A stretch of 64,000 nt of DNA from the NCBI GenBank assembly GCA_044344255.1, contig JBIJDH010000011.1, positions 160,001 to 224,000 of the forward strand, in the 5' to 3' direction. The stretch is from Myxococcota bacterium (GTDB lineage Bacteria > Myxococcota_A > UBA796 > UBA2385). Below are positions 13,241-64,000 of this stretch, one piece after another. Each line of letters opens with the position of its first letter. Position 1 is the stretch's first letter. The notes under the pieces were generated by a model. The model had not been told where the DNA came from and did no database searches. It saw only the letters and a program-made list of their open reading frames with translations. The translations under genes and the position numbers were made by a program.

Positions 13241-13255
13241 GCAGAGAGACCCCCT

Positions 13256-14635
<1,380 letters not shown>

Positions 14636-14907
14636 GGAAATACCCGATTCCTCGGGGAATGGCGGGGGCTCCGCTTTCCGAGGTGCGACTTTTACCGGCG
14701 CCTCATGGCAGCTCTGTGTCAAGGAGGGAGCGGGGGAGAGACGGGCCAGTGTCCGCCCGCTCAGAGCGCCTCATGATTCCTGTTGATCCTATATTTTTCC
14801 AACGTCCCTACCCATTCGTCAGAGTTCGGTCACTCGGGTGTGTCATCAACAGGGCGGCAACGTGGCGAGGACCGAGCGCTCGCGCGACAGGACCGCGGCG
14901 GAGCGCC

Positions 14908-15728
14908 TCACAGCGGGCAGGCCTCCTCGACCATCGAGCGGCGGCGCAGCACGAGGCGGCGCACGGCCGGGGCGTCGGGCAAGGCCACCCCCGAGGACTC
15001 CGCCTTCGCCACCGCTGCCGCCGCCGCGTCGAGCCAGGCGTAGATGGGCGGGGCCGTCTCGGCGCAGCGGGCGGGGTCCTCCTTGCCGGCGGTGGCCGCC
15101 ACCAGCGCCCGCGCCTGGAGCAGCCACAAGAGGCCTTGGAAGCGGGGCGCGGTGCCCGAGAGCTGGAGCGCGCCCTCGACGATGCGGAGGGCCTCCTCGG
15201 GCTTGTCCTGACGCAAGCGGACCTCGGCGAGGCCGAGCGGGTACTCCGCCTCGTTGGGCCGGCGGTTCACGAGGCTCTCGTAGATCCGCGCCGCCCCCTC
15301 GAGGTCGCCCGTCGCGAGGTCGAGCAGGGCCTGGCTCGCCAGCACGCCGGGGTCCTCCGGCGCGGCGGCCGAGGCCTTGCCGAGCCAGGTGCCGGCCTGC
15401 AGGAGGTCACCCTCGCTCAGTGACACGCTCCCGAGGCCGCGCAGGCACTCCGCCGCCTGCGGGTCGAGGTCGACGCAGCGCTGGAAGGCGGTGCGCGCCG
15501 CCGGTCGTTGGCCGGCGAGCTGGTAGGTCCAGCCGAGGCCAGCCAGCGCCGCCCCATGGGTGGGGTCCTTCTCCAAGGCCCGCCGGAAGTGGGCCTCGGC
15601 CGCCGAGAGATCGTGCGCGCGCAGGGCGGTGCGGCCCTCCGCCTCCTCATGGTCGGCCGAGCAGCCGAGCAGGGCGAGGAGCCCGAGCAGGGGAGGCAGG
15701 CCGCGGGACCGCCACCGGCACCCCGCCC

Positions 15729-15732
<4 letters not shown>
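14908..15732 (-). CDS. TPR lipoprotein
   Basis: Lipobox LLGC; TPR-like repeats (ALEKDP, LDP, PEDP, PNE). Confidence 0.8.
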
Positions 15733-17153
<1,421 letters not shown>

Positions 17154-25189: not shown

Positions 25190-25386
25190 GACGCCCCACC
25201 TCGCAGCTCCGCGCCGCCATCTCGGCGTCGGCGGGGCGCTCGAGCCGCGCCGCGCCGATCTCCGTCTCCACGCGCTCGATCTCGAAGCTCAGGAGCCCGC
25301 CGCCGCACGTCGAGGCCGCGCCCTCCTGCGACCTGTGGACGCTGTGCATCCGGCAGATGAACTCCTCCCCGAAACGGTCGACGATG
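25190..25386 (-). pseudogene. Degenerate, internally deleted copy of the 3' end of the gene at 33469-34197
   Basis: 25201-25327 matches 33473-33599 and 25328-25386 matches 33753-33811; encodes CGGGLLSFEIERVE...RLERPADAEMAARSCE; stop codon lost. Confidence 0.88.
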
Positions 25387-25599: not shown

Positions 25600-28500
25600 T
25601 CAGGTCCGACCGCGCCGTCGCGCCAACTGAGAGGCGTAGATCCGCCGCAAGAAGTCGTACAAGACCAGCTCCGTCGCCCGCTGAGCGCCACGTAAGAGGC
25701 GGTTGGCCTGCATATGGAGGTAGCTCGCCCCGAGATCTTGGATGGTCACGCAGAGCTGGCCCTGCCGAGCCGCGGCCCGCAGCTCCTGAACGATCGGGGC
25801 CAGGCGGAGGGACCGCGCTGCCAACAGAGAGAGCCCGGGCGCCAACGCATCGTCTCCTGACCCGGAGGGATCCCAGAGCAAGTCAAGACCTGGCCGCTGG
25901 GCGCGATAATTGGCGTCGAGCTGCCGCTCGAAGGGGGGCGTGACGCCAAACTCCTCGGCGAACCCGCGCCCAATCGCCACCACCAGCGCTGACTTTTCGG
26001 GGATGCTGAGGCCGATATCGTTGAGCAGGAGATCCATTCCGCGCAGGGCGAAGCGCCACCGCAAGTCATTGCCCTCATCACCGGACAGGAGCTCCACAAT
26101 CCCGAGCGCGGCCTCGCTGTCGGCCTCGAAGAGCCGCTCGGAGAGGGCCATCCCGACGGGGCCACCGTAACGCTCGACCTCCCGCTCGTAGGTGTCGAGC
26201 TGGAGCCGCCAGACCTGCCCACCCTCCAGGAGCGGCGCGACACACGCATAGAGGGCCGGGGCGATCTGCTGCCACAAGAGCCCTGGTTCTGCCTCGATGC
26301 GGAGGCGCAGATGCCAGTCGGGGTCACCGTACCGAATGAAGAACCAACGCTCGGCCCCCGCTTCCCGGGCGAGCTCCGTCAGGGGACGCACCACCCGCCG
26401 GAGCACCTCATCCGCCGTGGCGGTGCCGGTGTAGAGCTTTGCGTAGAGCCAGCGCGAGCCCGGAGCAAAGGCGCGCGGGAAGAGGTGGAGCGCCGGGCTC
26501 TCTCCCGGCCGGGTCACCCGCGGGGGGCTCCCGGTCGGGGCCGTCGGGCCGACCGCGGCGGCATCAGGGATCACGGGGAAATCAGGGATCACGGGGACAT
26601 CAGAGGTCACGAGGAAGGGGACCACCAGCTCATGCGTAAAACGACCCTCCGAACCCTCACAGAGCAGCTCGTCATAGGCCGGAAAGACCTCGCGGAGCTC
26701 GACCTCGGCCCCCTCCTCGAGCAGCGCCGCGAAGGCCTCCACGCTCAGAACATTGTCGAAGTCGATGGGGAGCGTGTTGTCGCCTTGTCCGAAGAGCAGG
26801 CGACACGGGAGGGCGCGCTGCTTCCGGAGCTCCTGGGCGCGCAGGAAGCGCTCATCCCCCCTCGCGAGGCGCAGTGGCCGGACTTCGGAGGGCTGCAACA
26901 CCCAGGTCGCGAGGGAGAGCACCAACCTCCCGTGAGAGACCCGAGGCAGGAAGGGCGCTCTCGCTAACGATCCCCAGCTCCAGCAGAGATTGTACCCGTC
27001 GCTCCGTAAGAGGCACAGGAGCTGGTAGAGGCCCAGGTCGGCGCCAGCAAAGTCGTGGGTGTTCGCCATACGGGGGATGATGGTTCGATTGAGCCGCACG
27101 GATCGCAGACGCACCCGACCGCCCTGCACCGAGATCATCAGATCCTGTACTGGGATCTGCGCTTCCGCCTCGGCCGCGGAGGCCCCCAGGTACGGGATCT
27201 CGTAGCGCCGCAGGCGGGGCCGGCAGATGATGTTTCCCGCGCGCCCCGCCGGCAGATGGATGATCTCTGCGAAGATCTCGTCCGGAGAGGATGCCTCCTC
27301 TTGGCGCATATGCGCCTCGACCCCGGCACGAAGCAAAGGGTCCACATGGCAGAAGCGCCCGAGCAAGTTCGAGCCCCCCGCGGAGGCCTCCAACCACAGC
27401 TTGAATCGCCCCGCGCTCGCTTCCGCCGCCGAGGGCGCCGCCACGCTGGCTCGTACGGCGATTGAGGCGGGGAGCGGCACCGGCGCCGTCACCCGAAGCG
27501 CATGGAGATCATCCTGACAAAGTATGATCTCCCTGGCACCGTCTTGGATTGCTCTGTGCATTATGCGCAATAGATGGGGATCACGCGGGTCGCCTGGGGA
27601 GGGGCGGGCCGCGGCCGGAAAGTCCAGCTTCGCCAGGAGGGGTGAGCACTCTTCCGCTCCGGCTCCGACCCCGCCGATGCCACAGTCCTCATCGAGGGCC
27701 TCCAGCAGCGGCACCTCGCGCCCCTCATACCGAGCCACAAACCTGCGCCTGAAGTCTTCGAAGGGGTCAACCGCGGGGCTGAGGCTGTGCAGGAGCGCCA
27801 GCCCCCGCCTCATCTCATCGATGAGCTCTCGCCCCAGGGTCGCCTCGAGGGCCGGCCTGGTCATGTCCACCTGGAGGAGCCGAGGCAGCTCCACCTGCGC
27901 AGGCAGCCGCTCCAGCGAGGCGGCGATACGGAGATAATGATCCGGAGGCGCACCCAGACCCCCTCTGTCGAGGTCCTCGATCAGGATGGCCGTCTCCCGG
28001 AGGATATCGGCGAATGGTCTGCTCTCTTCTGAAGCCGAGAGGCATTCGATCAAGGAGGAGATGGGCTGTGCCGCCGTGACCGATGGCTCGAGCAGAGGCA
28101 CCAGAAGCTGACTGTCGATGAGCGTATGAACGAAGGCATACGCCTCGACCAGGCTGATCTCGTCAGAGACAAGCACGGAGCAGAGCTCGTCGAAACCGGC
28201 TGTGGCGCGCGCCCTCTCTAGTATCGCCAACAGGTAGTCCGTCGGCTCCACAGAGACGAGGTGATAGCTTCGCTCTCGACCCCCACGCCATTCAACATAC
28301 CGGATCCGACCTGCGGACCCGTAGAGGCTTGTGTTCGTGGTATACGAGAAGCTGCGCCGCAGCGCGCGGTCGGCGGTCAGCGCCTCTGTGAATACACAGA
28401 GGTAGTGCATGTCCAAGCGGCTGTGGCGCCGAAGCTCGGACCGCGGAGACAAGGAGAGCACAGTTGCTGCGCCCATGGTGCCGGTGGAGGTGCCAGCGAA

Positions 28501-28959
28501 GAGGCCAAAGGGGGTGGGCCGGCCAGCCATGCGCTGGAGGTAGCGCACGAGTGCCCTCTCGACCCTCGAGCCCCGATCGCTGTCCGGCGCCGCAAGCCAG
28601 GTGGGCAAATGCGCGCTGAGGCTGGGAGAGGCGACGAAGAGCGCCTCCCGAATGACCGGGTCCTTGAGCTTCTCCCGCAAGAAGGCGCGCAGTCGCTGCC
28701 TGTCCTGCGCCAGCGCAGGGCCGAGCTCCGCTTGAGCTTCGGCTTCGCTCGCCCCCACCGCGCAGAGACCGTCGCCGAAGGCGAGGAGCACCCCAATGGG
28801 CAGGAGCGGAGTACGAAAGGCAAAAAAGTCCCCCGCTATGAAGGTTAACGGGGAGGTCAACGGGGAGCTCAACAGGGGGCTCAACAGGGGGCTCAACGGG
28901 GGTGTCACCGACGGAGAGATGGCGTTCCCTCGAGAGAGACCGCCCCGACGCGCGCGCAT
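25600..28959 (-). CDS. lanB: Class I lanthipeptide-type dehydratase (full-length LanB: glutamylation plus elimination domains)
   Basis: FRTPLLP, EALFVASP, YLQRMAGRPTPFGLFAG, LGRF, LPRV, DN.L..D; C-domain WLYAKLY, WFFIRY.DP..HLRLR, YEREVERYGG, SYLHM.ANRL; start uncertain. Confidence 0.95.
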   Translation of the reverse strand: MRARRGGLSRGNAISPSVTPPLSPLLSPLLSSPLTSPLTFIAGDFFAFRTPLLPIGVLLAFGDGLCAVGASEAEAQAELGPALAQDRQRLRAFLREKLKDPVIREALFVASPSLSAHLPTWLAAPDSDRGSRVERALVRYLQRMAGRPTPFGLFAGTSTGTMGAATVLSLSPRSELRRHSRLDMHYLCVFTEALTADRALRRSFSYTTNTSLYGSAGRIRYVEWRGGRERSYHLVSVEPTDYLLAILERARATAGFDELCSVLVSDEISLVEAYAFVHTLIDSQLLVPLLEPSVTAAQPISSLIECLSASEESRPFADILRETAILIEDLDRGGLGAPPDHYLRIAASLERLPAQVELPRLLQVDMTRPALEATLGRELIDEMRRGLALLHSLSPAVDPFEDFRRRFVARYEGREVPLLEALDEDCGIGGVGAGAEECSPLLAKLDFPAAARPSPGDPRDPHLLRIMHRAIQDGAREIILCQDDLHALRVTAPVPLPASIAVRASVAAPSAAEASAGRFKLWLEASAGGSNLLGRFCHVDPLLRAGVEAHMRQEEASSPDEIFAEIIHLPAGRAGNIICRPRLRRYEIPYLGASAAEAEAQIPVQDLMISVQGGRVRLRSVRLNRTIIPRMANTHDFAGADLGLYQLLCLLRSDGYNLCWSWGSLARAPFLPRVSHGRLVLSLATWVLQPSEVRPLRLARGDERFLRAQELRKQRALPCRLLFGQGDNTLPIDFDNVLSVEAFAALLEEGAEVELREVFPAYDELLCEGSEGRFTHELVVPFLVTSDVPVIPDFPVIPDAAAVGPTAPTGSPPRVTRPGESPALHLFPRAFAPGSRWLYAKLYTGTATADEVLRRVVRPLTELAREAGAERWFFIRYGDPDWHLRLRIEAEPGLLWQQIAPALYACVAPLLEGGQVWRLQLDTYEREVERYGGPVGMALSERLFEADSEAALGIVELLSGDEGNDLRWRFALRGMDLLLNDIGLSIPEKSALVVAIGRGFAEEFGVTPPFERQLDANYRAQRPGLDLLWDPSGSGDDALAPGLSLLAARSLRLAPIVQELRAAARQGQLCVTIQDLGASYLHMQANRLLRGAQRATELVLYDFLRRIYASQLARRRGRT

Positions 28960-28987
28960 CGGGGCGGTTGAGCTCGGAGTGCGTGGA

Positions 28988-29107
28988 TCAGTAGGTCCAC
29001 TTGATCTTGTTGTAGGAGCTGGTCTCGCCGGCCTTCACGTTGGTCTTCACCTTGAAGTCCTTGGCGGTGGTCTTGACGAGGTTGAGCTTGGGGGTGGTGG
29101 TGTCCAT
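28988..29107 (-). CDS. Putative RiPP precursor peptide MDTTTPKLNLVKTTAKDFKVKTNVKAG-ETSSYNKIKWTY
   Basis: 39 aa; GGAG RBS upstream; strongly biased codons; immediately upstream of lanB; Lys-rich leader-like part ending in KAG, then a Ser/Thr-containing core. Confidence 0.8.
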   Translation of the reverse strand: MDTTTPKLNLVKTTAKDFKVKTNVKAGETSSYNKIKWTY

Positions 29108-29177
29108 GAGTGCTCCGGAGTGAACGGCATCAGCGCCTGTTGAATGGATACCCGGCGCCCCCGGCCCGCACATCCTT

Positions 29178-29220
29178 CATGGATCTTACATCCATGGATC
29201 TTACATCCATGGATCTCACA
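29178..29220. repeat. 15-bp tandem repeat (CATGGATCTTACATC) about x3 across a stop codon
   Basis: Read directly; contains the palindrome ATCCATGGAT; lies upstream of the precursor gene. Confidence 0.85.
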
Positions 29221-30568
29221 ACCGCTCGAGGAGCCCGAGGGCGAGGAGCCCGTCGAGGAGCTCGGCCGCCTGCTCCCAGGATCTCCCCGACCACTCCTTG
29301 GCCTCCGCGGCCACGAAGCCCTGGCGCCGCGCATACAGGGTTCGGCCGAAGCGTAAGAGCTCCGGCTCATCGAAGGAGAGCTCCGTGGACCCGGCGCTGA
29401 TCTCGACGGTGGCCGCGCCGGTCTCCGAGAACAGGACACGCTCCTGAATCGGGAGCCTCGGGACCACCCGTAGCCGATCTTCGGGCTCGACCGCCCGCGC
29501 CACGACCGGCCCCCCTTCGACCAGCAGGCCGTTCTTCCAAAGCCGGATGGCATCCTCCGCGGGTAGCATCCGATCCGGGAGCTTCAGCCCCTCCTCGGTG
29601 AGCGGCCCGCCTTCAAAGGCCAGGAGCGCGCTCCAGAGGTCGATCGACGCTACATGGACGTCGAGCGCGCCCTGCACGGGGGTGTAGGCGACGCTCTCGT
29701 TCCCCTCTTCGTACTCCAGGGCCAGGCCCGGGCGGGCGGGGCGAAGGTGGCGAGGCGGAGCGATCGGGGACATCAGGCGGAGGCGGCGGGAGAGGGCCTC
29801 GGCCTCGGGGCCCACCCGCATCAGGACCTCCGACCAGGAGAGCCCCTCCACATCGGCGGCGCAGGCCTCGAAGAAGCTCAGCTCCCGCCCGGCCCAATCC
29901 CCCCACAGCTCCGCATGAAGCTCGGCGCTGATCGTTCCATCATCCTCGATCCAACCGCCAAAGGTCCTCGTGGTCACACGGTTTCGTGTCCCGTTCGACT
30001 GGAAGGCGGCCTGGTAGAAGCCTTGGTGGTGGAGGTGGCGGTTGGCGCAGTCCACCGAGAGCTTCTCCTCCACAAGGGCGAGCAAGAGGGTGAGCTGCTT
30101 CCAGACCTCCGCCCCGGGGATTCCATCTTCCATGAGGCAGAAGAATGTTTGACAGACGGCGTTACGATTCTCCCAGATCGTGCAATCACCGCTATCATAG
30201 TACGGACAACGCATTTCCAGGTCTGCGCCGAATTTTCCCGGGCTGGACTCATAACGGCGGTGGTAACGGGGCGAGGACTGTAGCCCGAATGGACTGAGTC
30301 CGATGCGACGACCGATCTGTTCACGGAGGCGCGAGGCGCCCTCGCCACCCGCGAGCAGCGCTCGTCCGACAGCGAAATTCGGCACATCCGGCCAGTAGGT
30401 GCAGCACTTGACGCTCGGGAGAAAGGCGCGGCCGAGCCCGGTGGCCGGGGGCTTACACATCGCGCAGTCCCCGCAGGTGGCTTTGGGCTCAGAGCCGAAA
30501 CGCCGACCGACGGCCTGTTCCATCCAGCGGGTGTAGGTGGAGTTCAGCGCGGAGCTCGGGTGGGACAC
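29216..30568 (-). CDS. YkgJ/CxxCxxCC cysteine-cluster (Fe-S or Zn) protein with extended C-terminus
   Basis: CGDCAMC..KCCTYWP..CPYY..CTIWENRNAVCQTFFC. Confidence 0.75.
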   Translation of the reverse strand: MSHPSSALNSTYTRWMEQAVGRRFGSEPKATCGDCAMCKPPATGLGRAFLPSVKCCTYWPDVPNFAVGRALLAGGEGASRLREQIGRRIGLSPFGLQSSPRYHRRYESSPGKFGADLEMRCPYYDSGDCTIWENRNAVCQTFFCLMEDGIPGAEVWKQLTLLLALVEEKLSVDCANRHLHHQGFYQAAFQSNGTRNRVTTRTFGGWIEDDGTISAELHAELWGDWAGRELSFFEACAADVEGLSWSEVLMRVGPEAEALSRRLRLMSPIAPPRHLRPARPGLALEYEEGNESVAYTPVQGALDVHVASIDLWSALLAFEGGPLTEEGLKLPDRMLPAEDAIRLWKNGLLVEGGPVVARAVEPEDRLRVVPRLPIQERVLFSETGAATVEISAGSTELSFDEPELLRFGRTLYARRQGFVAAEAKEWSGRSWEQAAELLDGLLALGLLERL

Positions 30569-30591
30569 GGGCAGCTCAACCTGGGCAGGGG

Positions 30592-31479
30592 CTAATCAGG
30601 AGGGGTGGCGAGGGAGGCGCGCCCGAGGGCGAGCTCCGCGAGGTCATTGAGGTACTGAGTCTGATCTTCGTTCAGGGCCCCACGCTCCAGGGCATCGATG
30701 AGCTCGGTGACCTGCTCGGGCTCGTTGAGGGCGCACAGGATGCCGTCCATCTCGGGACGGGAGAGGGCGTAGCGGTAATAGTCGGTGATGTGCGGGCGCC
30801 AATGCGAGGGTCCGAGGCCCAGCGCCGCGGAGTCGGGTTCGGACAGATATCCGTGCGTGCTCTTGAAGTTGTAGAGGAGGGCCGGGCTACCCTTCGAGAG
30901 CTGCGGAAAGACCTCCTCCTCGGCCCCGCGGTGAAGCGGGTTGTACCGAAGAAATCCGATGTCGATCAGGCCGTGGTTGAGGGCGAGAACTCCGGCTCGG
31001 CGGTCGTGGAAGCTCGCGCCGATCGCCCGCGAGGCGGGCTCGCGCTCGGGTTGATGCGCGCGGTACTCTCCGAGCCGCACCAGGAGGTCGGCGGCATAAG
31101 CGCCCCCGGCGATCGCGAGATCGACCCGCTCCAGCCCTTTGATCGCGGCCACGACCTCGTGGAAGGGCGCGTGACAGAATTCGGGCTGAGTGACGTAGGA
31201 GACGACGCCCACCACGACCTCGTCGCGTACGCCCCCGCCCCGCTCGAAGAGCAGCTCGAGGCCCCGCCGTAGCTTCTCGTAGAGCGGCCAGTGCATGTCA
31301 GCCGTCACAAAGAAGAAGTTGACGCCCGCGTCGAAGGCCGCGGGGACCACCCGCGGGTCGCCAACCAGGCCAAGGCAGACGGGGCTCACCCCGACCGGGA
31401 GGCCGCCCATGCGGTAACGGTGCCTCAAGCTGGGGAGGCTGCGCGCGTTGACCGGGGATTGACGCCGAGGCGGGAGCAT
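30592..31479 (-). CDS. Aldo/keto-reductase-like oxidoreductase
   Basis: VSPVCLG, AFDAGVNFF, AIGASFH, RYNPLHRGAEEEVFP, Y.LS.P..D..L AKR-fold motifs; start 31479 or 31509. Confidence 0.75.
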   Translation of the reverse strand: MLPPRRQSPVNARSLPSLRHRYRMGGLPVGVSPVCLGLVGDPRVVPAAFDAGVNFFFVTADMHWPLYEKLRRGLELLFERGGGVRDEVVVGVVSYVTQPEFCHAPFHEVVAAIKGLERVDLAIAGGAYAADLLVRLGEYRAHQPEREPASRAIGASFHDRRAGVLALNHGLIDIGFLRYNPLHRGAEEEVFPQLSKGSPALLYNFKSTHGYLSEPDSAALGLGPSHWRPHITDYYRYALSRPEMDGILCALNEPEQVTELIDALERGALNEDQTQYLNDLAELALGRASLATPPD

Positions 31480-31540
31480 CGGGGCGAAGAGTAGTCGGGG
31501 ACAATCCACGAGTCAAGCATCCGGGTCGGAGGGGGGTCCG

Positions 31541-33289
31541 TCAGTCGCGGCGCGAGGTGCGAAGGCTGGCCAGGACGGTCGCGAGGAGCCCGAGGAGCAG
31601 GCCGCCCCCAGAGGTTGATGTGCTACAGACCCCCTCCTTCGGTCCTGCTCGCACAACGCTCCCGCCACCGTCGTCACCGTCGGGCAGCGCCTCGCCCCCT
31701 GAGCCATCCTCCCCCGGGTCGGCCGAATCGACGACCGCCGTGTCGGCCCCGCCTCCGTCACTCGCCCCCGTGTCTGTCGTGACCCCCGTGTCGGTCGTCG
31801 CCCCCGTGTCGGTTCCGCCCGTGTCTCCGAGACCCTCGTCCACCTCGCCGTCGCAGTCCTGATCCAACCCGTCCGACAGCTCTGTCGCCCCGGGATAGAT
31901 GGAGGGATCGGCGTCGTTACAGTCGCCTGCGTCCTCCGACCACCCGTCCAGGTCGTCGTCGGTCGCGCTCATAGACGACAGGAAGACATAGACCAGCCCC
32001 TCGTCTGCGGCCGCCGCCGTGCCGTAGGGGGCGGAGACGGCCAGATCGGGGAGGCCATCTCCGTTCCAGTCCCCGCCCGTCGTGACCGCGGCGCCAAAGT
32101 CGTCACCGGTGGCGGTGGAGGAGGCCGTCCAGGAGGGCGTTGCAGCCAGACCCGTAGCGCTCCCCGGGTAGATCGCGACGAAGCCCGATCCGGTGACAGG
32201 ATCCCCGGCCATGGCGGTCAGGACGAGGTCGGTGAATCCATCACCATCGAAGTCTCTGCCGCCCGCGATGCCAGCGCCGAGCTCCAACATGGACGGATCT
32301 CCGAGGATGGACCAGTCCGGGAGGGCTGCGGGGCCCGTCGGGCTGCCGAGGTAGATGTCGACGCGCCCCTGCCTCGGGTTGGTGTCCTCCCAGATGGGGG
32401 CGCTCACCGCGAAGTCGGCGAATCCGTCCGCGTTGAGGTCTCCGAGCCCGGTGACCTGCATCCCGAATTCTGTCCAATCCTGTCCAAGGAAAGTCCCGTC
32501 GACGGTGGCGAGCTCTCGAAACCCACTCCCCCACCGCTGGTAGATGTGTACCGAGCCATAGGAAGAAGGCTCCATGGCGTCCCCCACGGCAATGTCGTCG
32601 AAGCCGTCTCCATCGACGTCTCCGATGCCGGCCACAGAGTAGCCGAAATAGGGGTCTACCCCAGCCAAGGTTTTCCAGTAGGAAGTTAACCCGGTCGAGG
32701 AGCCCATCACGACGAGGGCATAACCATCGCGATCACCGTCGTCCTCGGCCGAGGTCATCGGCGCGCCGACGATGACGTCGTCGTAGCCATCTCCATTGGG
32801 GTCGCCTGCGGCGGCGAGACCGTAACCACCCATGCCGACGTCTTCTCCCTCAGAGAAGAGCTCCACGGAGAAGCTCGGGACAAGGGCCGGGCCCGTCGGC
32901 CCTCCATAAAAGGCGTAGAGGGCGCCCGAGCCCGTCCCTCCTTTCGGGGCCGCGACCACGATGTCGGCGTAGCCATCGCTGTTCACGTCCCCGGCGCCTG
33001 CCACCGACGAGCCGAACTGCCCCTCGGCCAGTCCCCCCGTGTATGACCAGGCGGGCATGAGGTCGAGCCCTGTGGGGCCACCGAGGAACAGATAGACCAC
33101 CCCGTCCTGATGACTGACCACGGTGGCGGTTGGCGCGGCCACGAGCAGGTCGTCGAAGCCGTCGCCGTTCACGTCTCCGGCCGACGCGAGGGAGACACCG
33201 AGGTAGTGGTCCGCCACGCCGAGGCCGATGACCTGGGTGGCGGTCGTGAGCGAGAGGAGGCCAAGCGCGGGAAACATCGGCGGGACCAA
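31541..33289 (-). CDS. FG-GAP (integrin-alpha-like) repeat surface protein with MopE-like motif and MYXO-CTERM-like tail
   Basis: Repeated G.S.A.AGD.NGDG.DD..V.AP; DCNDADPSIYPGA.E..DG.DQDCDG; Cys plus hydrophobic plus Arg C-terminus. Confidence 0.9.
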   Translation of the reverse strand: MVPPMFPALGLLSLTTATQVIGLGVADHYLGVSLASAGDVNGDGFDDLLVAAPTATVVSHQDGVVYLFLGGPTGLDLMPAWSYTGGLAEGQFGSSVAGAGDVNSDGYADIVVAAPKGGTGSGALYAFYGGPTGPALVPSFSVELFSEGEDVGMGGYGLAAAGDPNGDGYDDVIVGAPMTSAEDDGDRDGYALVVMGSSTGLTSYWKTLAGVDPYFGYSVAGIGDVDGDGFDDIAVGDAMEPSSYGSVHIYQRWGSGFRELATVDGTFLGQDWTEFGMQVTGLGDLNADGFADFAVSAPIWEDTNPRQGRVDIYLGSPTGPAALPDWSILGDPSMLELGAGIAGGRDFDGDGFTDLVLTAMAGDPVTGSGFVAIYPGSATGLAATPSWTASSTATGDDFGAAVTTGGDWNGDGLPDLAVSAPYGTAAAADEGLVYVFLSSMSATDDDLDGWSEDAGDCNDADPSIYPGATELSDGLDQDCDGEVDEGLGDTGGTDTGATTDTGVTTDTGASDGGGADTAVVDSADPGEDGSGGEALPDGDDGGGSVVRAGPKEGVCSTSTSGGGLLLGLLATVLASLRTSRRD

Positions 33290-33468
33290 GGCGGAGCTCC
33301 TTCAGGGCGGGGCCGCCCGCAACCAAAGGTTGCACGCTCGGACCACGTTGTCAACGACCACACTGACAAAATGGCGCAATACCCCTGCTTTGTTCGCGCC
33401 CGGGGGTGGTCCGTGTATCGGTGCCGGTGGACGAGCCCCCCGTCGGCGTATGAGCGCCGACGGCGCCC

Positions 33469-34197
33469 CTACTCGCAGCTCCGCGCCGCCATCTCGGCGT
33501 CGGCGGGGCGCTCGAGCCGCACCGGGCCGGTCTCTGCCTCCACGCGCTCGATCTCGAAGCTCAGGAGCCCGCCGCCGCACTTCGAGGTCGCGCCTTCCTC
33601 CAACGGCCGCTCGGTGTAGGCGGCGATGACCGTCACGCGCCAGAGGAGACCGTCGATCCAGAGGTCATCGGCCCCGCCAGCGTCGATCACCACCTCACCC
33701 TGATCGGAGGGGAAGACGGGGCTGAGCCAGCGCCGCTCCACGCCGTCCTCCTCCGAGCGGTGGATGTTGTGCATGCGGTAGACGAACTCATCCCCGAACC
33801 GATCGACCACGGCTTCGTTCCGATCGGCTCCCCACAGGGCCCACACGAGGTCTACGTCATCGGAGAGCGCGAGGCCGCTTGGGGCGCCGGTGGCGGAGGG
33901 GGTGACCGAGAGGGTGAGCGCCGTGTCGGCGAAGCGCGAGAGGTCGGTGACCGCGGGGCTGTGGACCTCGAGCGCCCAGGCCTCCTCCTCACCCTCGAGG
34001 GTCAACGACCATTCCCGCTCGGCGCCAGTGACGCGGAGCAGGCCCGACTCCTCCCAAGGCCCCAAGGATGGGTCCACGGTGAAGTCTGCCTCCACGACCG
34101 CCGCCTCGAGCTGCCGCCCCTCGAGGCTGTTGTTGGGGAGACAACCGGTGAAGGGCACGAGGAGGGCGAGCACGACGGGAGGGCGGCGGACGTCCAT
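33469..34197 (-). CDS. Hypothetical lipoprotein
   Basis: Lipobox FTGC after hydrophobic stretch; RBS GGAG; parent of the fragment at 25190-25386. Confidence 0.75.
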   Translation of the reverse strand: MDVRRPPVVLALLVPFTGCLPNNSLEGRQLEAAVVEADFTVDPSLGPWEESGLLRVTGAEREWSLTLEGEEEAWALEVHSPAVTDLSRFADTALTLSVTPSATGAPSGLALSDDVDLVWALWGADRNEAVVDRFGDEFVYRMHNIHRSEEDGVERRWLSPVFPSDQGEVVIDAGGADDLWIDGLLWRVTVIAAYTERPLEEGATSKCGGGLLSFEIERVEAETGPVRLERPADAEMAARSCE

Positions 34198-34408
34198 GGG
34201 AGCTCCAGGCAGGAAGGAACTAGCTCGAGCGAGCCACACCGAAGCACACGACGTGCCAGCGAGCCGTGGTGCAGATCGCCGGAGAGCGCCCGCGGTCTGT
34301 GGAGCAGAACCCTGACATCGCTGTCCCGCTGGCGCGGCTCGGGCCGGCATCGAATGGCATCCCCGCCCTGCCGTCGACCGGCTACACCCGGAAGGTAGAA
34401 GGCAGCCC

Positions 34409-35173
34409 ATGACCGCCCTGATCCTCCTCGCGCTCTCGCTCCTACCCCCCGCCCACGCCGAGACCGAGCCGGAGGCCGCCGCCGCCGAGCACAAGCGCCC
34501 GCCGTCCCAAGGTCAGGGGGAGAAAGGGCAGAAGGGCAAGGGGGGCAAGCACGGCAAGAAGGGCAAGAAGGGCAAGCCCGCCGAGCCCGAGTGGAAGAAG
34601 GAGGTCTACGCGGCCCCCTCGGCCGGCCTGACCACCTGGAATGACGGCACGAACACCACCACGGCCGCCAGCGTCGGCGCCGAGGCGGGGGTCCACTACT
34701 GGCAGGTCCACAAGCCCCTGCCCCGCTGGCAGGGGACCACCCGGGTGGCCGGCGACTACATCATGGGGAGCAACAACGTCTCGGGCTACGACGTGCGGCT
34801 CGGCAGCTTCATCGGCCCTTCCTGGAAGTACGCCGGCATCCAATTCGGCCCCGACGTCTACCACAACCAGTACCGCTACGGCACCACCGAGCTGCCCCCC
34901 ACCACCGGCGTCTCCGTGCCGGTCACCGCCACCGGCTGGTTCGACCCGGTCACCGTCTACGCCGGCATCGCGCCCTCCTGGTTCCTCTCCTCGGAGCGCG
35001 AATCGGTCAACTGGGGCGAGGCCGACTCGCTCGGCTTCGGCGACGAGTTCTCCATCCGCGCCGGGGCCTCGCTGCGGGTGGACAAGCTCCGCGTCGGGGT
35101 CGACTTCGTCCGCACCGAGACGGCCTACGGCACCCAGCAGGGATATGGCCTGAACATGGGCTACAATCGGTGA
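34409..35173 (+). CDS. Exported protein, probable small outer-membrane beta-barrel
   Basis: Signal peptide AHA-E, Lys/Gly-rich linker, beta-strand pattern ending YGLNMGYNR. Confidence 0.7.
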   Translation: MTALILLALSLLPPAHAETEPEAAAAEHKRPPSQGQGEKGQKGKGGKHGKKGKKGKPAEPEWKKEVYAAPSAGLTTWNDGTNTTTAASVGAEAGVHYWQVHKPLPRWQGTTRVAGDYIMGSNNVSGYDVRLGSFIGPSWKYAGIQFGPDVYHNQYRYGTTELPPTTGVSVPVTATGWFDPVTVYAGIAPSWFLSSERESVNWGEADSLGFGDEFSIRAGASLRVDKLRVGVDFVRTETAYGTQQGYGLNMGYNR

Positions 35174-47911: not shown

Positions 47912-50590
<2,679 letters not shown>

Positions 50591-51703
50591 TTAGCCTGTC
50601 CGCACGCTCCCTTCCACCACCTGCCAGCGCGTGGTCTCGCCGGTGGGCAGCGGGCCGAGCCAGCCCGGCTCGGTGGTGGTGATCCAGACCTGGTTGTCGA
50701 AGGAGCCGAGCAGCTCGACGAGGCGCGCCATCCGACCCCGGTCGAGCTCGCTCGTGAGGTCGTCGAGGAGGAAGAGCGGGGGCTCATCTCCGCGGTCGGC
50801 GGCCGCTCGGATCTCGGCCAGCTTGAGCGCGAGGACGAGGCTCCGCACCTGGCCCTGGGAGGCGAAGCTGCGGGCCAGCCGCCCCTCGACGCGGATGTCG
50901 AGGTCATCCTTGTGGGGGCCGACGAGGGCGAGGCCCCGCCGGCGCTCCTCCCCGCCGGCGCTGGCGAGGGCGCGCTCGAGGTGGAGCGGGAGGCGGTCGG
51001 GGTCCTCCACGCCCACCCCGCGGAGGACGAGCTCGACCGGCGCCCGCCCGCCGCCGATGGCGCGGTGGAGCTCGACGACGTGGGCCCGCAGCTCCTCGAC
51101 CACCCGCAGGCGCCGCAGCGTGAGGCGGGCGCCGAGCTCGACCAGCCGCTGGTTCCAGGTGGCGAGCTCGATGGGATCGACCCGCCCGCCCCGCAGCAGC
51201 GCCCCCTTCTGAGAGAGCACCCGCTGGTAGTCCCGGACGAGCTCGAGGTGGCTGGGATCGGCCGTGAAGGCGGCCCGGTCGAGGAAGCTCCGCCGCTCGG
51301 CGGGCTCACCGCGGATGATCCGCGCGTGGTCCGGCGAGAAGATGACCGCGCGCAGGACAGCGAACCAGTCGCGCAGCCGGCGGACCGGGGCCTGGTCGAG
51401 CGACAAGGAGCGCTTCTCCCCCTTGCGGCGCCACTCGAGCTGGCGGGTGCCGCCCATGCCGCGCACCTCCGCGCGTAGGACAGCCTCACCCGGCTGGCGA
51501 CCGACGCCGGAGCCCTGGCGGATGAGGCGGGCCGTCCGCGCCTCCCGGAAGCTGCGGAGCGTGGCCAGCATGCCCACGGCCTCGAGGAGGTTGGTCTTGC
51601 CCTGGGCGTTGTCGCCGTGCAGCACGACAAAGCGGGTGAAGGCCTCCAGGCGGGCCTGACGCAGGTTTCGCCAGTCCACGGCCTCCAGCGTGACGAGCCG
51701 CAC
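50591..51703 (-). CDS. recF: DNA replication/repair protein RecF
   Basis: G.NAQGKTNLLEA, RRSFLD, GPHKDD, SQGQ, LLDDLTSELD. Confidence 0.96.
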   Translation of the reverse strand: MRLVTLEAVDWRNLRQARLEAFTRFVVLHGDNAQGKTNLLEAVGMLATLRSFREARTARLIRQGSGVGRQPGEAVLRAEVRGMGGTRQLEWRRKGEKRSLSLDQAPVRRLRDWFAVLRAVIFSPDHARIIRGEPAERRSFLDRAAFTADPSHLELVRDYQRVLSQKGALLRGGRVDPIELATWNQRLVELGARLTLRRLRVVEELRAHVVELHRAIGGGRAPVELVLRGVGVEDPDRLPLHLERALASAGGEERRRGLALVGPHKDDLDIRVEGRLARSFASQGQVRSLVLALKLAEIRAAADRGDEPPLFLLDDLTSELDRGRMARLVELLGSFDNQVWITTTEPGWLGPLPTGETTRWQVVEGSVRTG

Positions 51704-51723
51704 GCTCGAACCCCCTCCGGCGC

Positions 51724-52839
51724 TCAGTCCAGGCGCATCGGCATGACGACGAAGAGGCAGTCATCGCGGCCCGGCAGGCGGACGATGCAGGGGTCCAAGG
51801 TGTCGCCGAGGTCGAGCGAGATGCGGTCGCCGCGGGTGTTTGAGAGGATGTCCTGGAAATACTTGACGTTGAAGCCCGTGAGCAGGGGAGTGCCCTGCAC
51901 ATCGGCCTCGACCTCGGCCCGCACGTCCCCGGCCTCGACGTTGGCGGCGGAGAGCACGACACGGTCGCTCTCGAAGGAGAAGCGCACGAGGTGGTTGCGG
52001 TCGGACGCCATGATCACCACGTTGCGCAGCGCCTTGTCGAAGGCGTCGCGGTTCATCTCCACGTGGCGCTTGAAGCTCTGGGGCAGGACCTGGCGGTAGT
52101 CGGGGAATTCCCCCTCGACGAGGCGCACGATGAGCGTGAGGCCCGGCGTGCTCACCACCGCGGAGCGATCGCCGAAGGCGACGGTCCAGAGGGAGTCATC
52201 GGCCTCCACCATCTTGCGGATCTCGCCCAGCGCCTTCTTCGGGAGCAGCATCTTGCGGCCCATGCCGAACTGCCCCTCGTAGGGGGTCTCCGAGTAGGAG
52301 AGGCGGCTGCCGTCGGTGGTGACGAGGCGCAGCGTGTTGCCGGCCTTGCCTCCGACCTCCTCGAAGTGGGCGCCGTTCAACCCGTAGCGGTTCTCGTCGC
52401 CGCTCACGGAGAACAGGGTCTCCTCGATGATCCGACGGAGGCCCCGACCTTGGATCTGGAGCTTCGCCTTATCGTTTTGCGTAGGCAGCGGCGGGAACTC
52501 GTCGGGAGAGCCGGCGAGGATGTTGAACTCGGCCGTGCCCGACCGCACCGAGAGGCGGTTGCCGCTGTTGGTGCGGAGGTGCACCACCTCGCCGTTCAGG
52601 GCCTTTGAGACCTGGAAGAGCGTGGCGGCGTCGACGGACAGCTCACCCGGCCCCGCGACCTGGGCGGGGTAGTCGGCGACGAGGGTGAGCAGCGTGTCGG
52701 TGGCGGTGAGCCGCAGCCGCTCGCCAGAGGCCTCGAGCAGCACATGGGCGAGGGCGGGGTTGGTGGTCCGGCGCTCGATGATGCCTTGAACCCGCTGCAG
52801 CCCGCGCGTGAGCTCTTCCCGACCGATCGTCACATCCAT
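51724..52839 (-). CDS. dnaN: DNA polymerase III beta clamp
   Basis: L.ATD, FP.LP, TDG.RL, RLVEGEFPDY, GFNVKY, VVMPMRL. Confidence 0.97.
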   Translation of the reverse strand: MDVTIGREELTRGLQRVQGIIERRTTNPALAHVLLEASGERLRLTATDTLLTLVADYPAQVAGPGELSVDAATLFQVSKALNGEVVHLRTNSGNRLSVRSGTAEFNILAGSPDEFPPLPTQNDKAKLQIQGRGLRRIIEETLFSVSGDENRYGLNGAHFEEVGGKAGNTLRLVTTDGSRLSYSETPYEGQFGMGRKMLLPKKALGEIRKMVEADDSLWTVAFGDRSAVVSTPGLTLIVRLVEGEFPDYRQVLPQSFKRHVEMNRDAFDKALRNVVIMASDRNHLVRFSFESDRVVLSAANVEAGDVRAEVEADVQGTPLLTGFNVKYFQDILSNTRGDRISLDLGDTLDPCIVRLPGRDDCLFVVMPMRLD

Positions 52840-61393: not shown

Positions 61394-62389
61394 CTACCGA
61401 TCCGGTTCGCGAACCGGCGCCTGCCCCGCCGACCGCCGCTCCCGGCTGCGCAGGTAGTCCGGCCAGAGGGCCTCGCAGAGGCGGGTCAGCGCAGCGTCTA
61501 CGGCCTGTGTGGCGGCCCAGACGCCGTCGGGGAGGGTCTCTTCGAGGAGTCGGTTGGTCTCCAGCGCCTTGGCGGCGAGGGCCTCGGGGCTGGGAGGGTC
61601 GTCGAGGGAGCCCACGCGGGTCTTGCCGAGGAGCTCCGACAGGGAGCCCGACAGGCCCACATTGGAGGGGTGGATGCTGCGATCGGCGTCGACGACGAGG
61701 CCGGTGTTGAAGAAGGGGGTGGGCGCGACGGTGAAGAGGTTGCGGAGGTAGAGGCGCTGCCCGTTCTCCCAGGCCTGTCGGATCTCGCTCTCGATCCCCT
61801 GGAAGCCCTCCCGCAGCGCCAGGAGCTGCTCGGGCTTCCAGGGGATGTAGTAGCCGGGGAGCAGGTTGAAACGCCAGAAGCCGAGGCTCCGCAGGTGGCG
61901 GAAGTTCTCGAGGGCCCGCGCGGCGGTGGAGGGGGCGAAGGTCTGGGTGATGACCACCCGCGGGGTCCGCAGCAGGGCCTCTCGCAAGCCGAGCACGTGG
62001 TCGTAGGTGTCGGGCACCCCGGGGAGCGCGCGGCGGAGCCGGCGGTGGTCCTCGGGGGCGCCGTCCATGGACAGGGTCAGGATGCCCTTCGGATAGGCGC
62101 GCAGGTAGTCGAGCCACTCGGCGTCGAGGCCGAGGCCGTTCGTCGACAGATACACACTCCGGACGCGGGGCTCCTCCCGCGCGGCCTCCATCGCGGCCCG
62201 GACCACGCCGGGGACGAGCAGGGGCTCGCCGCCGAAGAGCTTGAGGTCACCGCCGCCGTATCGCTCGGCGAAGAGGCGCACCGCGCGTCGGGCGTCGTCC
62301 TCGGAGAGCGAGGGCCAGCCGTCCTTGGCGGTGGGGCAATAGGCGCAGCGGAGGTTGCAGGCCCGCGTGACCGTGAGGATGAGGCTCAT
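61394..62389 (-). CDS. Radical SAM protein of the His-Xaa-Ser locus
   Basis: CNLRCAYC, FGGEP, TNG, SMDG; no SPASM cysteines. Confidence 0.9.
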   Translation of the reverse strand: MSLILTVTRACNLRCAYCPTAKDGWPSLSEDDARRAVRLFAERYGGGDLKLFGGEPLLVPGVVRAAMEAAREEPRVRSVYLSTNGLGLDAEWLDYLRAYPKGILTLSMDGAPEDHRRLRRALPGVPDTYDHVLGLREALLRTPRVVITQTFAPSTAARALENFRHLRSLGFWRFNLLPGYYIPWKPEQLLALREGFQGIESEIRQAWENGQRLYLRNLFTVAPTPFFNTGLVVDADRSIHPSNVGLSGSLSELLGKTRVGSLDDPPSPEALAAKALETNRLLEETLPDGVWAATQAVDAALTRLCEALWPDYLRSRERRSAGQAPVREPDR

Positions 62390-62430
62390 GGGGCCCGCTC
62401 AGGGCGGCGGCGCCGGGCCCGGCCGAGCCC

Positions 62431-62793
62431 TCACCACTGGCCGTGAGAGCCGTGGGAGCCGTGGGAGCCGTGGCTGCCGTGCGACCCATGGGACCCATGC
62501 GAGCCGTGGCTACCGTGGCTGCCGTGCGACCCATGGCTGCCGTGGGAGCCGTGGGAGCCGTGGGAGCCGTGGGAGCCGTGGCTGCCGTGCGAGCAGTGGG
62601 TGACGTAGACCAGCCCCGCGTTGTCGGGGTCGGCGAGCAGCTCGTCGGCCTTGATCGCCGCCTCGTCGGCGCGGATCACCGGGTTGACCTGCTGGAGCTC
62701 CTGGAGCTGCAGGAAGTCTACCGGTCGCCGCTCCAGCTTGGGGAGTTCGGCGGCGGAGTCAGCTTGAAACTTACCATTCTGCAGGGTGGCCAT
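62431..62793 (-). CDS. hxsA: His-Xaa-Ser repeat precursor peptide
   Basis: 65-aa leader followed by HCS(HGS)16HGQW; AGGAG RBS; between two radical SAM genes. Confidence 0.9.
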   Translation of the reverse strand: MATLQNGKFQADSAAELPKLERRPVDFLQLQELQQVNPVIRADEAAIKADELLADPDNAGLVYVTHCSHGSHGSHGSHGSHGSHGSHGSHGSHGSHGSHGSHGSHGSHGSHGSHGSHGQW

Positions 62794-62801
62794 GTGCTCT
62801 C

Positions 62802-64000
62802 CTAGACCGTCGCGGCGTCGCCCGCGGTGACGAGGTCACCGGGCGCGGGCATACGGGGACGGTCTACCGTCCAGCGTCGGAAGATGGTCTCGGCAAGGGG
62901 ATCGTTCAACAGCCGCTCAAAGAGGATGTGGAGGATGCCCAGGTGCTGTTGGTGCTTGAGGGTGAGCGGGCGTTGTCCGAAGAGGTCGCCGCTCAGCATA
63001 TAGTTGTGGTCGGGACGGACGCCGCACCAGGGGGCGGCGAAGCAGCTCTCACACTGGGGCAGCGCGTCGAGGAAGCTCGAGGCTGCGAGGGCTCGCACCG
63101 TGGGGTGGCGGGTGGCCTCCTCGAAGCTGGTCTGGTCGACGTGGCCGATGAGGAAGAAGGGGTCCCCCATCGCGTGGACCATTCTGCCCTCGTCAGAGGG
63201 GAGGATCGCGCCATCGTAATTGTAGCAGATCTGCCCGGTCCCGGCCCCGAGGGGGGAGCGGATGTCGACGAAGTTGGGGTCGTCGGGCGTGAGCAGCTTC
63301 TTCAGGAAGGTCGCCGCGGTGCCCTCCATGATCTGGACGCCCTTCTTGTTCAGCTCGATGATGTAGTCGAGGATGTCCCGGTAATAGTCCAGGAACTCCT
63401 CCATCGAGTAGCCGATGGTCTTCCAGGTCTTGGTGGCGAAGCCGAAGGGGTTGAGCGGCCGGATGTGGATGTTACGGAGGCCGAGCTCCACGTAGAGATC
63501 GACGATCTCCCGCCCCTTCCCGAGCGAGGCGCGGGTGGTGGTGGTGAGCGCGTCTACATGCCAGAGCTCGGGGTCGCGGCCCATGTCCACGTAGCGCTGG
63601 TTGATCTTCTTCATCCAGCCGATGACGGTGTCGAAGGCGGCGCCCTTCTGGCCGGTCCAGGGCCGGTTTGTGTCATGGAGCTCGCGGGGGCCGTCGAGGC
63701 TCGTGCAGAGCAGGACGCCGTTCTTCACCAGCCAGTCCGCCGTCTCGTCGGTCATGTACGTCATGTTCGTGACGACGGAGTGGTCCAGCGTCTTCCGCTC
63801 GTAGCGGTTCTTCTCGCGGCTGTACTCGACGCAGAACTTGATGACGTCGAGGTTCACGGTGGGCTCGCCGCCCTGGTACTCGAAGCAGAGGTAGGGCGAG
63901 GGCGTGCGCATCGCGTGGTCCACCACCTTCTTCGCCGTCTCCAGGGACATGTCGGTGTCGACACGGTCCATGTCGGTGCGGGAGGCGTGGCAGTAGCGGC
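62802..64000 (-). CDS. hxsB: His-Xaa-Ser system radical SAM maturase HxsB-like (5' end outside the window)
   Basis: ..RYCHAS at the window edge, QGGEP, SLDGP, LNPFGFA, RSP.GAG.GQ..YNYDG, DEGRM. Confidence 0.85.
   Translation of the reverse strand, partial: RYCHASRTDMDRVDTDMSLETAKKVVDHAMRTPSPYLCFEYQGGEPTVNLDVIKFCVEYSREKNRYERKTLDHSVVTNMTYMTDETADWLVKNGVLLCTSLDGPRELHDTNRPWTGQKGAAFDTVIGWMKKINQRYVDMGRDPELWHVDALTTTTRASLGKGREIVDLYVELGLRNIHIRPLNPFGFATKTWKTIGYSMEEFLDYYRDILDYIIELNKKGVQIMEGTAATFLKKLLTPDDPNFVDIRSPLGAGTGQICYNYDGAILPSDEGRMVHAMGDPFFLIGHVDQTSFEEATRHPTVRALAASSFLDALPQCESCFAAPWCGVRPDHNYMLSGDLFGQRPLTLKHQQHLGILHILFERLLNDPLAETIFRRWTVDRPRMPAPGDLVTAGDAATV

Follow-up and report, generated by a model that had tools for sequence, protein, structure and literature searches.

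What does a full-length lanthipeptide dehydratase do in a gene cluster that has neither a cyclase nor a cysteine in its precursor peptide? The question is raised by a locus of a Myxococcota bacterium (assembly GCA_044344255.1), contained in a stretch of 64,000 nucleotides of contig JBIJDH010000011.1 that is called the window here. Four open reading frames (ORFs) lie on its minus strand at 30592-31509, 29216-30568, 28988-29107 and 25600-28959. They encode a protein with the TIM-barrel fold of the aldo-keto reductases (AKRs), a 450-residue putative metal or Fe-S protein with nine cysteines (the Cys protein), a 39-residue precursor peptide, and a 1119-residue LanB dehydratase. An earlier note on this DNA had described these four same-strand genes in this order, as is confirmed here, and had taken them for a candidate new class among the peptides that are made on the ribosome and modified after translation (RiPPs), one that does without LanC. 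A different answer is preferred. The locus may be a lanthipeptide cluster that has lost both lanC and the cysteine of its precursor and now yields a linear, modified 12-mer; the probability of this reading is put at roughly 0.5. Up to dehydration the cluster resembles class I lanthipeptide machinery, and it is most aptly regarded as a derivative of that machinery.

The dehydratase looks catalytically whole, judging from its sequence. Its glutamylation and elimination domains are both matched in a Pfam scan (PF04738, E 1.2e-149; PF14028, E 2.4e-65), in agreement with the earlier note, and it can be aligned with MadB, MibB and NisB across both domains. These alignments display the motifs RTP, RxxxRxTPFG, RLD, GRF, ERYGG and HMxxNRL, which we take to be catalytic. 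The protein is a single fused chain, its true start is probably near 28908, and it is the only LanB of the genome (8.18 Mb, 95% complete). A cyclase was not found. No LanC was detected in the genome by hidden Markov model search, in which 14 controls were likewise silent, and tblastn of the genome with an orthologous LanC as the query gave a best E of 2.5. YcaO was also absent from the genome, in a search that detected 5 of the 14 controls. The absence of LanC and YcaO claimed for the island extends, as far as these searches go, to the genome, and neither protein was found in trans. The marks of thiopeptide or azole-dehydro clusters (YcaO, a split LanB, a pyridine synthase) are lacking as well, with NF045556 at 11.8 bits versus 325. 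What remains of the class I hallmarks is the full-length, two-domain LanB, whereas LanC and a core with both Ser/Thr and Cys are missing. Full-length lanB genes without lanC or a precursor nearby were also seen at L005:2099-5206 and L233:2481-5534 (G473:C13), the latter near two RiPP radical S-adenosylmethionine (SAM) genes (TIGR03975, TIGR04463).

The precursor (28988-29107), an ORF with GGAG upstream, consists of a 27-residue leader that ends in VKTNVKAG and a 12-residue core, ETSSYNKIKWTY, with four Ser/Thr and no Cys. This agrees with what had been read before, and the claim that the product cannot be a lanthipeptide stands too, since no lanthionine can form without Cys. From established LanB chemistry, some of the four Ser/Thr would be dehydrated to dehydroalanine (Dha) and dehydrobutyrine (Dhb) in a glutamyl-tRNA-dependent manner, and a thioether would be impossible. 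The leader matched none of the NCBIfam models, and a homologue search with the peptide returned only the query itself. Cys-free precursors also occur inside clusters with lanC (three of six in L003, one of three in L012); for this reason, the lack of Cys in a core is not enough to define a new class.

An orthologous locus makes it possible to ask how the cyclase came to be missing. An alignment of the long form of the Cys protein, used to search the 182 genomes of the class, led to it, and it belongs to a genome of a different family (G474, 84% complete; locus L202). The four genes are collinear with those of the window and share 69% (AKR), 67% (Cys protein), 67% (peptide) and 64% (LanB) identity with them. 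Additionally, L202 has a gene for a 417-residue LanC (PF05147, E 2.5e-43) between the peptide and lanB, inverted onto the opposite strand (L202:3699-4952, on G474:C364), with the motifs AHG, WCYG and CHG intact. Its core is ten residues longer than that of the window and has one Cys, near its end. The DNA of the two loci is 68-71% identical in three blocks, and this similarity breaks off within the final codons of the peptide gene of the window, to return where lanB starts. Because the break spans the 3' end of the peptide gene up to lanB, the absence of the Cys and that of lanC are both explained by one event. The junction (28860-28990), at whose equivalent in L202 the lanC region of 1.25 kb is found, carries short tandem repeats. 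In an unrooted LanB tree of ten rows, all from AKR loci, made with a quick tree search, the LanB of the window is sister to that of L202 with a Shimodaira-Hasegawa-like approximate likelihood ratio test (SH-aLRT) support of 100, and lanC is present in eight of the nine other rows. A loss on the branch that leads to the window explains these sequences more simply than a gain in G474 would. The ancestral order would have been AKR-fold protein, Cys protein, precursor, lanC and lanB; one deletion would have removed lanC together with the Cys-bearing end of the precursor, and the remaining genes would have been maintained. The earlier note had named homologous loci with lanC and Cys-containing cores as evidence that would count against its new class. 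The sole orthologue found is such a locus, and the proposal of a distinct LanC-less class is given up as the main reading.

The layout itself is well founded. Contigs from three of four sequencing runs, each from a separate study, bridge the junction between the peptide and lanB without differences; the layout is therefore taken as real, and an assembly error at this place is ruled out. These four runs are a subset of 21 listed runs, and none of the four is marked as a possible source of the assembly. At least 81% of the words of the locus are contained in 20 of the 21 runs, from 16 studies, 4 of these runs being possible sources. No RNA run carrying the locus was among the 21, and a scan of the locus for promoters and terminators gave results at chance level.

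Whether the shortened pathway still works is a separate matter. The deletion might have killed it, leaving genes that have not yet decayed and no functional product. Such a recently broken remnant is suggested by the loss of cyclase and nucleophile together, by a 141-nt direct repeat that flanks the island as a sign of recent rearrangement, by an island that has no protease or exporter of its own, and by the orphan lanB genes of L005 and L233. The variation of the locus argues the other way. Among lanC-less strains, 14 listed single-nucleotide polymorphisms (SNPs) fall in the genes of the cluster, and 9 of them are synonymous and 5 are not, where 26% would be expected to be synonymous (P=0.003); in lanB alone, 5 of 7 are synonymous (P=0.015). 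With the exception of one contig of low depth, the four runs showed no well-supported frameshift, and wherever the peptide is covered it is unchanged. The presence of the locus in so many runs and studies is a further point against decay. A remnant is considered unlikely. Compared with L202, the ratio of nonsynonymous to synonymous substitution rates (dN/dS) is about 0.20 for LanB, 0.17 for the Cys protein and 0.13 for the AKR-fold protein, with dS near saturation. These sequence comparisons lend modest support to continued selection on the locus.

If the pathway is alive, the AKR-fold protein (30592-31509) is the first candidate for a step after dehydration. Its model has a predicted local distance difference test (pLDDT) score of 93.6 and is matched by Foldseek to AKRs at E 2e-11 with a template modelling (TM) score of about 0.65, so that the (beta/alpha)8 fold is predicted from structure. 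The AKR-like reductase of the earlier note is thus borne out in its fold, but PF00248 reaches only 12.8 bits, under the cut-off of 24, and the catalytic tetrad is missing. Relative to six canonical AKRs of the same genome, the sites of the tetrad, which we take to be Asp-Tyr-Lys-His, are replaced (DTAxxY by VTADMH, ATK by VSY, LYQxH by AIAGG), while 34 other columns are invariant across 62 rows of the family. The ketoamide reduction that had been suggested is argued against by this loss, which would suit reduction of a C=C bond better than that of a carbonyl. The protein has 938 homologues, and its start is likely the ATG at 31479 (295 residues), because the orthologue begins at a matching Met.

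The neighbours of this family are informative. A first scan listed 18 loci, of which 14 with at least 42% identity over most of the length were kept and four weak ones dropped; a second listed 28, from which three were kept, true members with at least about 10 kb of sequence. All counts on these 17 long loci hold among the matches listed. The AKR gene is accompanied by lanB in nine loci, and seven of these nine hold lanC, which is another point against a LanC-less class; of the other two, L004 ends inside lanB and L005 comes from a genome without lanC. The LanC of L028 is devoid of LanC motifs. HopA1 is found in four loci, three with a confirmed phosphotransferase, so that the family stands beside dehydration machinery in 13 of the 17. 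Since the gene is tied to two unrelated dehydration systems, this points to a substrate with Dha or Dhb. Outside the 17, on short contigs, lanB adjoins the AKR gene in L025, and a C39 exporter and five Cys-free peptides are present in L023. No member of the family was found in 400 other genomes of the phylum at E 1e-30, and G474 holds the only true orthologue among the 182 class genomes.

Reductases of Dha and Dhb offer a comparison. This role is described in PMC7268733 and PMC7794033 for the Zn-dependent LanJA, the flavin-dependent LanJB and the luciferase-like SprOR. As with these enzymes, a redox-fold gene lies beside dehydration enzymes in the window, but it belongs to a different family, that of the AKR barrels, and its activity is only predicted; neither "aldo" nor PF00248 appears in the accessible part of PMC7268733 and one of its supplements. 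By analogy with LanJ, the tetrad-less protein could be an NAD(P)H-dependent ene-reductase that turns Dha and Dhb into (D-)Ala and (D-)aminobutyrate, an assignment that falls a little short of probable. The accessible text of PMC7794033 proposes HopA1 (PF17914) and a phosphotransferase (PF01636) as the dehydration pair of class V. This pair adjoins the AKR-like family in L007, L010 and L011, HopA1 adjoins it in L008, and the pair is absent from the window. In the same four loci, the AKR-like gene is accompanied by JmjC, HopA1 and phosphotransferase genes in a class V-like arrangement of Myxococcota, with no cyclase seen, and L010 and L011 have a repeat peptide with PLKS motifs beside it. Multi-precursor arrays adjoin the AKR-like gene at L003:8500-9962, L023:3684-4901 and L012:4388-5295, with Ser/Thr/Gly-rich cores, many of them Cys-free. 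Related AKR loci also contain the leaders of class I lanthipeptides described by NF038153, over the cut-off in L006 and under it in L003.

The Cys protein (29216-30568) is the second candidate. The note had called it a CxxCxxCC enzyme related to PF03692; it is indeed Cys-rich, but its motif is C32xxC35xxC38-x16-C55C56, as read from the Cys conservation in 143 rows of a family of 1724 clusters, and PF03692 reaches 14.7 bits, under the cut-off of 23. Its N-terminal part appears to be distantly like YkgJ (PF03692), with an Atlas feature score of 0.81. In an hhalign comparison, its second Cys group weakly matched PF03692 members over 29 columns, at E 3e-4 and a probability of 39%, compared with 0.1% and 0.0% for the controls. 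Foldseek found no match for the protein at E 0.001, the N-terminal 350 residues being barely probed by the fold search. No solved relative was found by sequence, no match on plasmids, and no viral relative among 54 candidates. The modelled tail (residues 356-450) has the three-strand, three-helix fold of PqqD, that is, of a RiPP recognition element (RRE), a fold that also occurs in non-RiPP winged helices. Seven RiPP proteins (ThcOx, TigE, MibB, PqqD, McbB, PbtF and TbiB1) match it with Z 6.2-7.0 and a root-mean-square deviation of 2.4-3.2 over 74-86 residues (ThcOx 7.0, TigE 6.8, MibB 6.7, PqqD 6.5), and the top matches are winged helices from ribosomal oxygenases (MINA53 with Z 9.4, another with 7.7). 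Leader binding by this tail is a prediction from its fold.

A Lys methylation is the leading guess for the function of this protein. According to PMC8598068, the flagellin Lys methyltransferase FliB has CX4CX3CC, eight conserved Cys and one [4Fe-4S] cluster. Both FliB/YkgJ and the Cys protein are Cys-rich N-terminally, but the latter differs in its spacing and its extra winged-helix tail and matches no NCBIfam model; the likeness to FliB is drawn at the level of the published motif. Both orthologous cores retain the stretch KIKW. The Cys protein might use its RRE-type tail to bind the leader and modify KIKW, most simply by FliB-like methylation, a proposal that is made by analogy and is doubtful. 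The two Lys of KIKW, with Ser/Thr upstream, would also permit a ring without Cys, in which a core Lys is added to Dha, by the Cys protein in place of the cyclase or by chemistry alone, to give a lysinoalanine-type bridge. The putative metal-binding Cys set and the RRE-type tail agree with such a function. On the other hand, L202 holds both the Cys gene and an intact lanC, so that the former replaces nothing there, most members of its family stand alone, and no cyclase fold was matched among the listed rows; a Cys-free ring is very unlikely. The earlier note had made its class depend on the AKR and Cys genes being conserved beside lanB, which is upheld for the AKR family by its ties to dehydration genes. 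For the Cys gene it fails. Short forms are stand-alone, with lanB in 0 of 28 loci and a leader peptide in 0 of 28, one spurious match aside. Eight long-form loci were seen (the window, G474, G253 and five of the genus g50), and none of the six other than the window and G474 has lanB. A general partnership with lanB was thus rejected, as lanB is lacking in 28 of 28 short-form and six of seven other long-form loci.

The remaining steps are cleavage and export. It had been stated that the island has no protease or transporter, which holds for the island but not for the genome. An unlinked contig (G000:C54:9610-15581) carries an HlyD-like gene, an ATP-binding cassette (ABC) exporter with a C39 peptidase and another ABC gene; a precursor was not noticed in their vicinity. 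This exporter is 43% and 49% identical to those of L183 and L192, where C39 exporters adjoin peptides with the same leader end (L183:10019-10374 and L192:9722-10090, one of them a tandem NHNQ repeat). The AG at the end of the window leader is a site of the double-glycine type (GG, GA or AG). By analogy, the leader could plausibly be cut in trans after AG, and cleavage at this site with export by the C54 system is slightly favoured; the product would be a linear, modified 12-mer. The leader end KTxVKAG was found in 14 of 401 genomes of the phylum by a DNA pattern search, some by chance. A scan of viral sequences gave 14 loci, two with short same-leader ORFs and the others unrelated. Orphan same-leader peptides in L187 and L190 adjoin Trans_reg_C/AAA or TPR genes, hinting at a tie to signalling. 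It had also been asked whether the genome holds lanC or other precursors elsewhere. No lanC was found, but a second orphan peptide of 19 residues with the same leader end is present at G000:C75:3706-3762 (L157), downstream of two genes that by eye resemble a halogenase and a carotenoid oxygenase.

Several points weigh against a live pathway derived by loss of lanC. The direction of the loss is based on one orthologue and on an unrooted tree of rows selected for the AKR gene, and the inverted lanC of L202 makes a gain in G474 possible. The dN/dS values cover mostly time that preceded the loss, and the SNP test consists of 14 sites, with two runs sharing the same haplotype, and does not take in 6 further listed differences. 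Dehydration genes are absent from 4 of the 17 AKR loci, two of them cut on one side, and the HopA1/phosphotransferase loci L007, L008 and L010 have the same gene order and likely stand for one event. A sister family of the AKR-fold protein, found in 38 of the 182 class genomes, is tetrad-less as well, with lanB within 1.5 kb in 0 of 8 loci (L223-L230). The loss of the tetrad therefore predates the link to RiPPs, and the protein may be non-catalytic; the presence of SmbA among its Foldseek matches is of the same bearing. Finally, a Pfam scan of 32 long-form Cys proteins matched no family, with PF03692 in 0 of 32 at E 0.01.

The long-form Cys locus of G253 suggests another history. There, 17 short ORFs with a common 10-residue leader surround the Cys/RRE gene (L098:7664-7967 and 13244-16673, on G253:C162), between two Trans_reg_C + AAA regulators, and no lanB, lanC or AKR gene is present. 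A scan against all of Pfam assigned one of 15 peptides to PF05638 (E 0.013), another matches an annotated Hcp, the tube protein of type VI secretion, on a plasmid, and a further one has no plasmid match. Against a full-length Hcp of Gemmatirosa (L249), 10 of the 17 cores score better than all but at most 10 of 1000 shuffles and together cover 95 of 165 residues; two further cores are weak, and five have no match. The first five pieces are ordered from N to C along the gene order. No intact hcp was found in G000, G253 or G392.

It can be asked whether the LanC-less form is the original one. Peptides with a KTxVKAG leader would then have the Cys/RRE protein as their core enzyme, and their cores would be captured protein fragments, here a strand of Hcp; lanB and the AKR gene would have been added, and G474 would later have gained lanC and a Cys tail. 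Long-form Cys genes stand beside such peptides in two of three independent lineages (window/G474 and G253), compared with none of the 28 short-form loci, the G253 cores tile Hcp without lanB or lanC, and the lanC of L202 is inverted. The window core itself scores 5.9 bits on an Hcp profile (positions 135-143); of 20000 real 12-mers none does as well, and of 20000 shuffles 5 do. Yet this match consists of nine residues and was noticed after the fact. The core has no match to L249 (99 of 1000), which among the Hcps is nearest to the cores of G253, to Pfam or to plasmids; the core of L202 does not match the Hcp profile (2343 of 20000), and the orphan core on C75 does not match the Gemmatirosa Hcp. 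Five g50 loci with the long form have neither peptide nor lanB, and the relatives of LanB mostly have lanC. A link between the window core and Hcp is possible without being probable, and an originally LanC-less system is rather improbable. A bolder extension holds that the long-form Cys/RRE protein founded an undescribed system in which a short KTxVKAG leader is fused to captured protein pieces. The hcp of G253 would have become a leader-fused fragment library, and the window peptide, an Hcp strand, would be made by LanB and the AKR-fold ene-reductase into a linear strand mimic with D-residues that could block the assembly of the type VI secretion tube of rivals; this is highly speculative.

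Under the preferred reading, that of a lanthipeptide cluster that lost lanC, the cluster can be set beside known class I systems such as NisB/NisC, MibB and MadB. It shares their full-length LanB, and its orthologue in L202 possesses lanC and a core with Cys, but it is itself without lanC and Cys, has two extra genes, and its exporter is unlinked. Neither this cluster nor AKR-fold or Cys families in RiPP pathways, nor Hcp-derived cores or a gene-fragment route to precursors, are described in the literature searched (titles and starts of abstracts, few subscription journals). If the cluster works, a single deletion would have turned a lanthipeptide pathway into one for linear peptides in nature, and the lanC-bearing sister locus would be a ready control. 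The AKR-fold protein is a candidate for a new family that installs D-amino acids in class I and class V pathways, and the YkgJ-like metal protein with its RRE-type tail is a second testable enzyme candidate. The G253 array, in which cores seem to have been made by cutting up an existing gene as a route to precursor diversity, merits its own study. On the N-terminal part that both forms of the Cys protein have in common, the long forms group together weakly (SH-aLRT 80), and one short form falls among them.

The surroundings of the cluster add some minor features. The genes lie in an island of 8.3 kb bracketed by the 141-nt direct repeat (pair D4), whose left copy (25192-25332) is a duplicated end of the gene at 33469-34494 and is 91% identical to the right copy (33464-33604). 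Within the island, a gene for an FG-GAP repeat protein (31541-33289, minus strand, by Pfam) shows nothing that ties it to the pathway, and a counterpart beside the AKR gene is absent from L202. Short tandem repeats are located before the precursor (29160-29215), at the start of lanB (28850-28905) and in the inter-domain linker of LanB (26556-26615). Since gyrB, recF and dnaN follow each other at 47912-52833, the replication origin probably lies close to the island. A His-Xaa-Ser system, with the radical SAM gene HxsB, the repeat peptide HxsA4 and a second radical SAM gene, is located at 61394-63971 of the window, and an HxsB gene is found about 6 kb past the AKR gene in L202.

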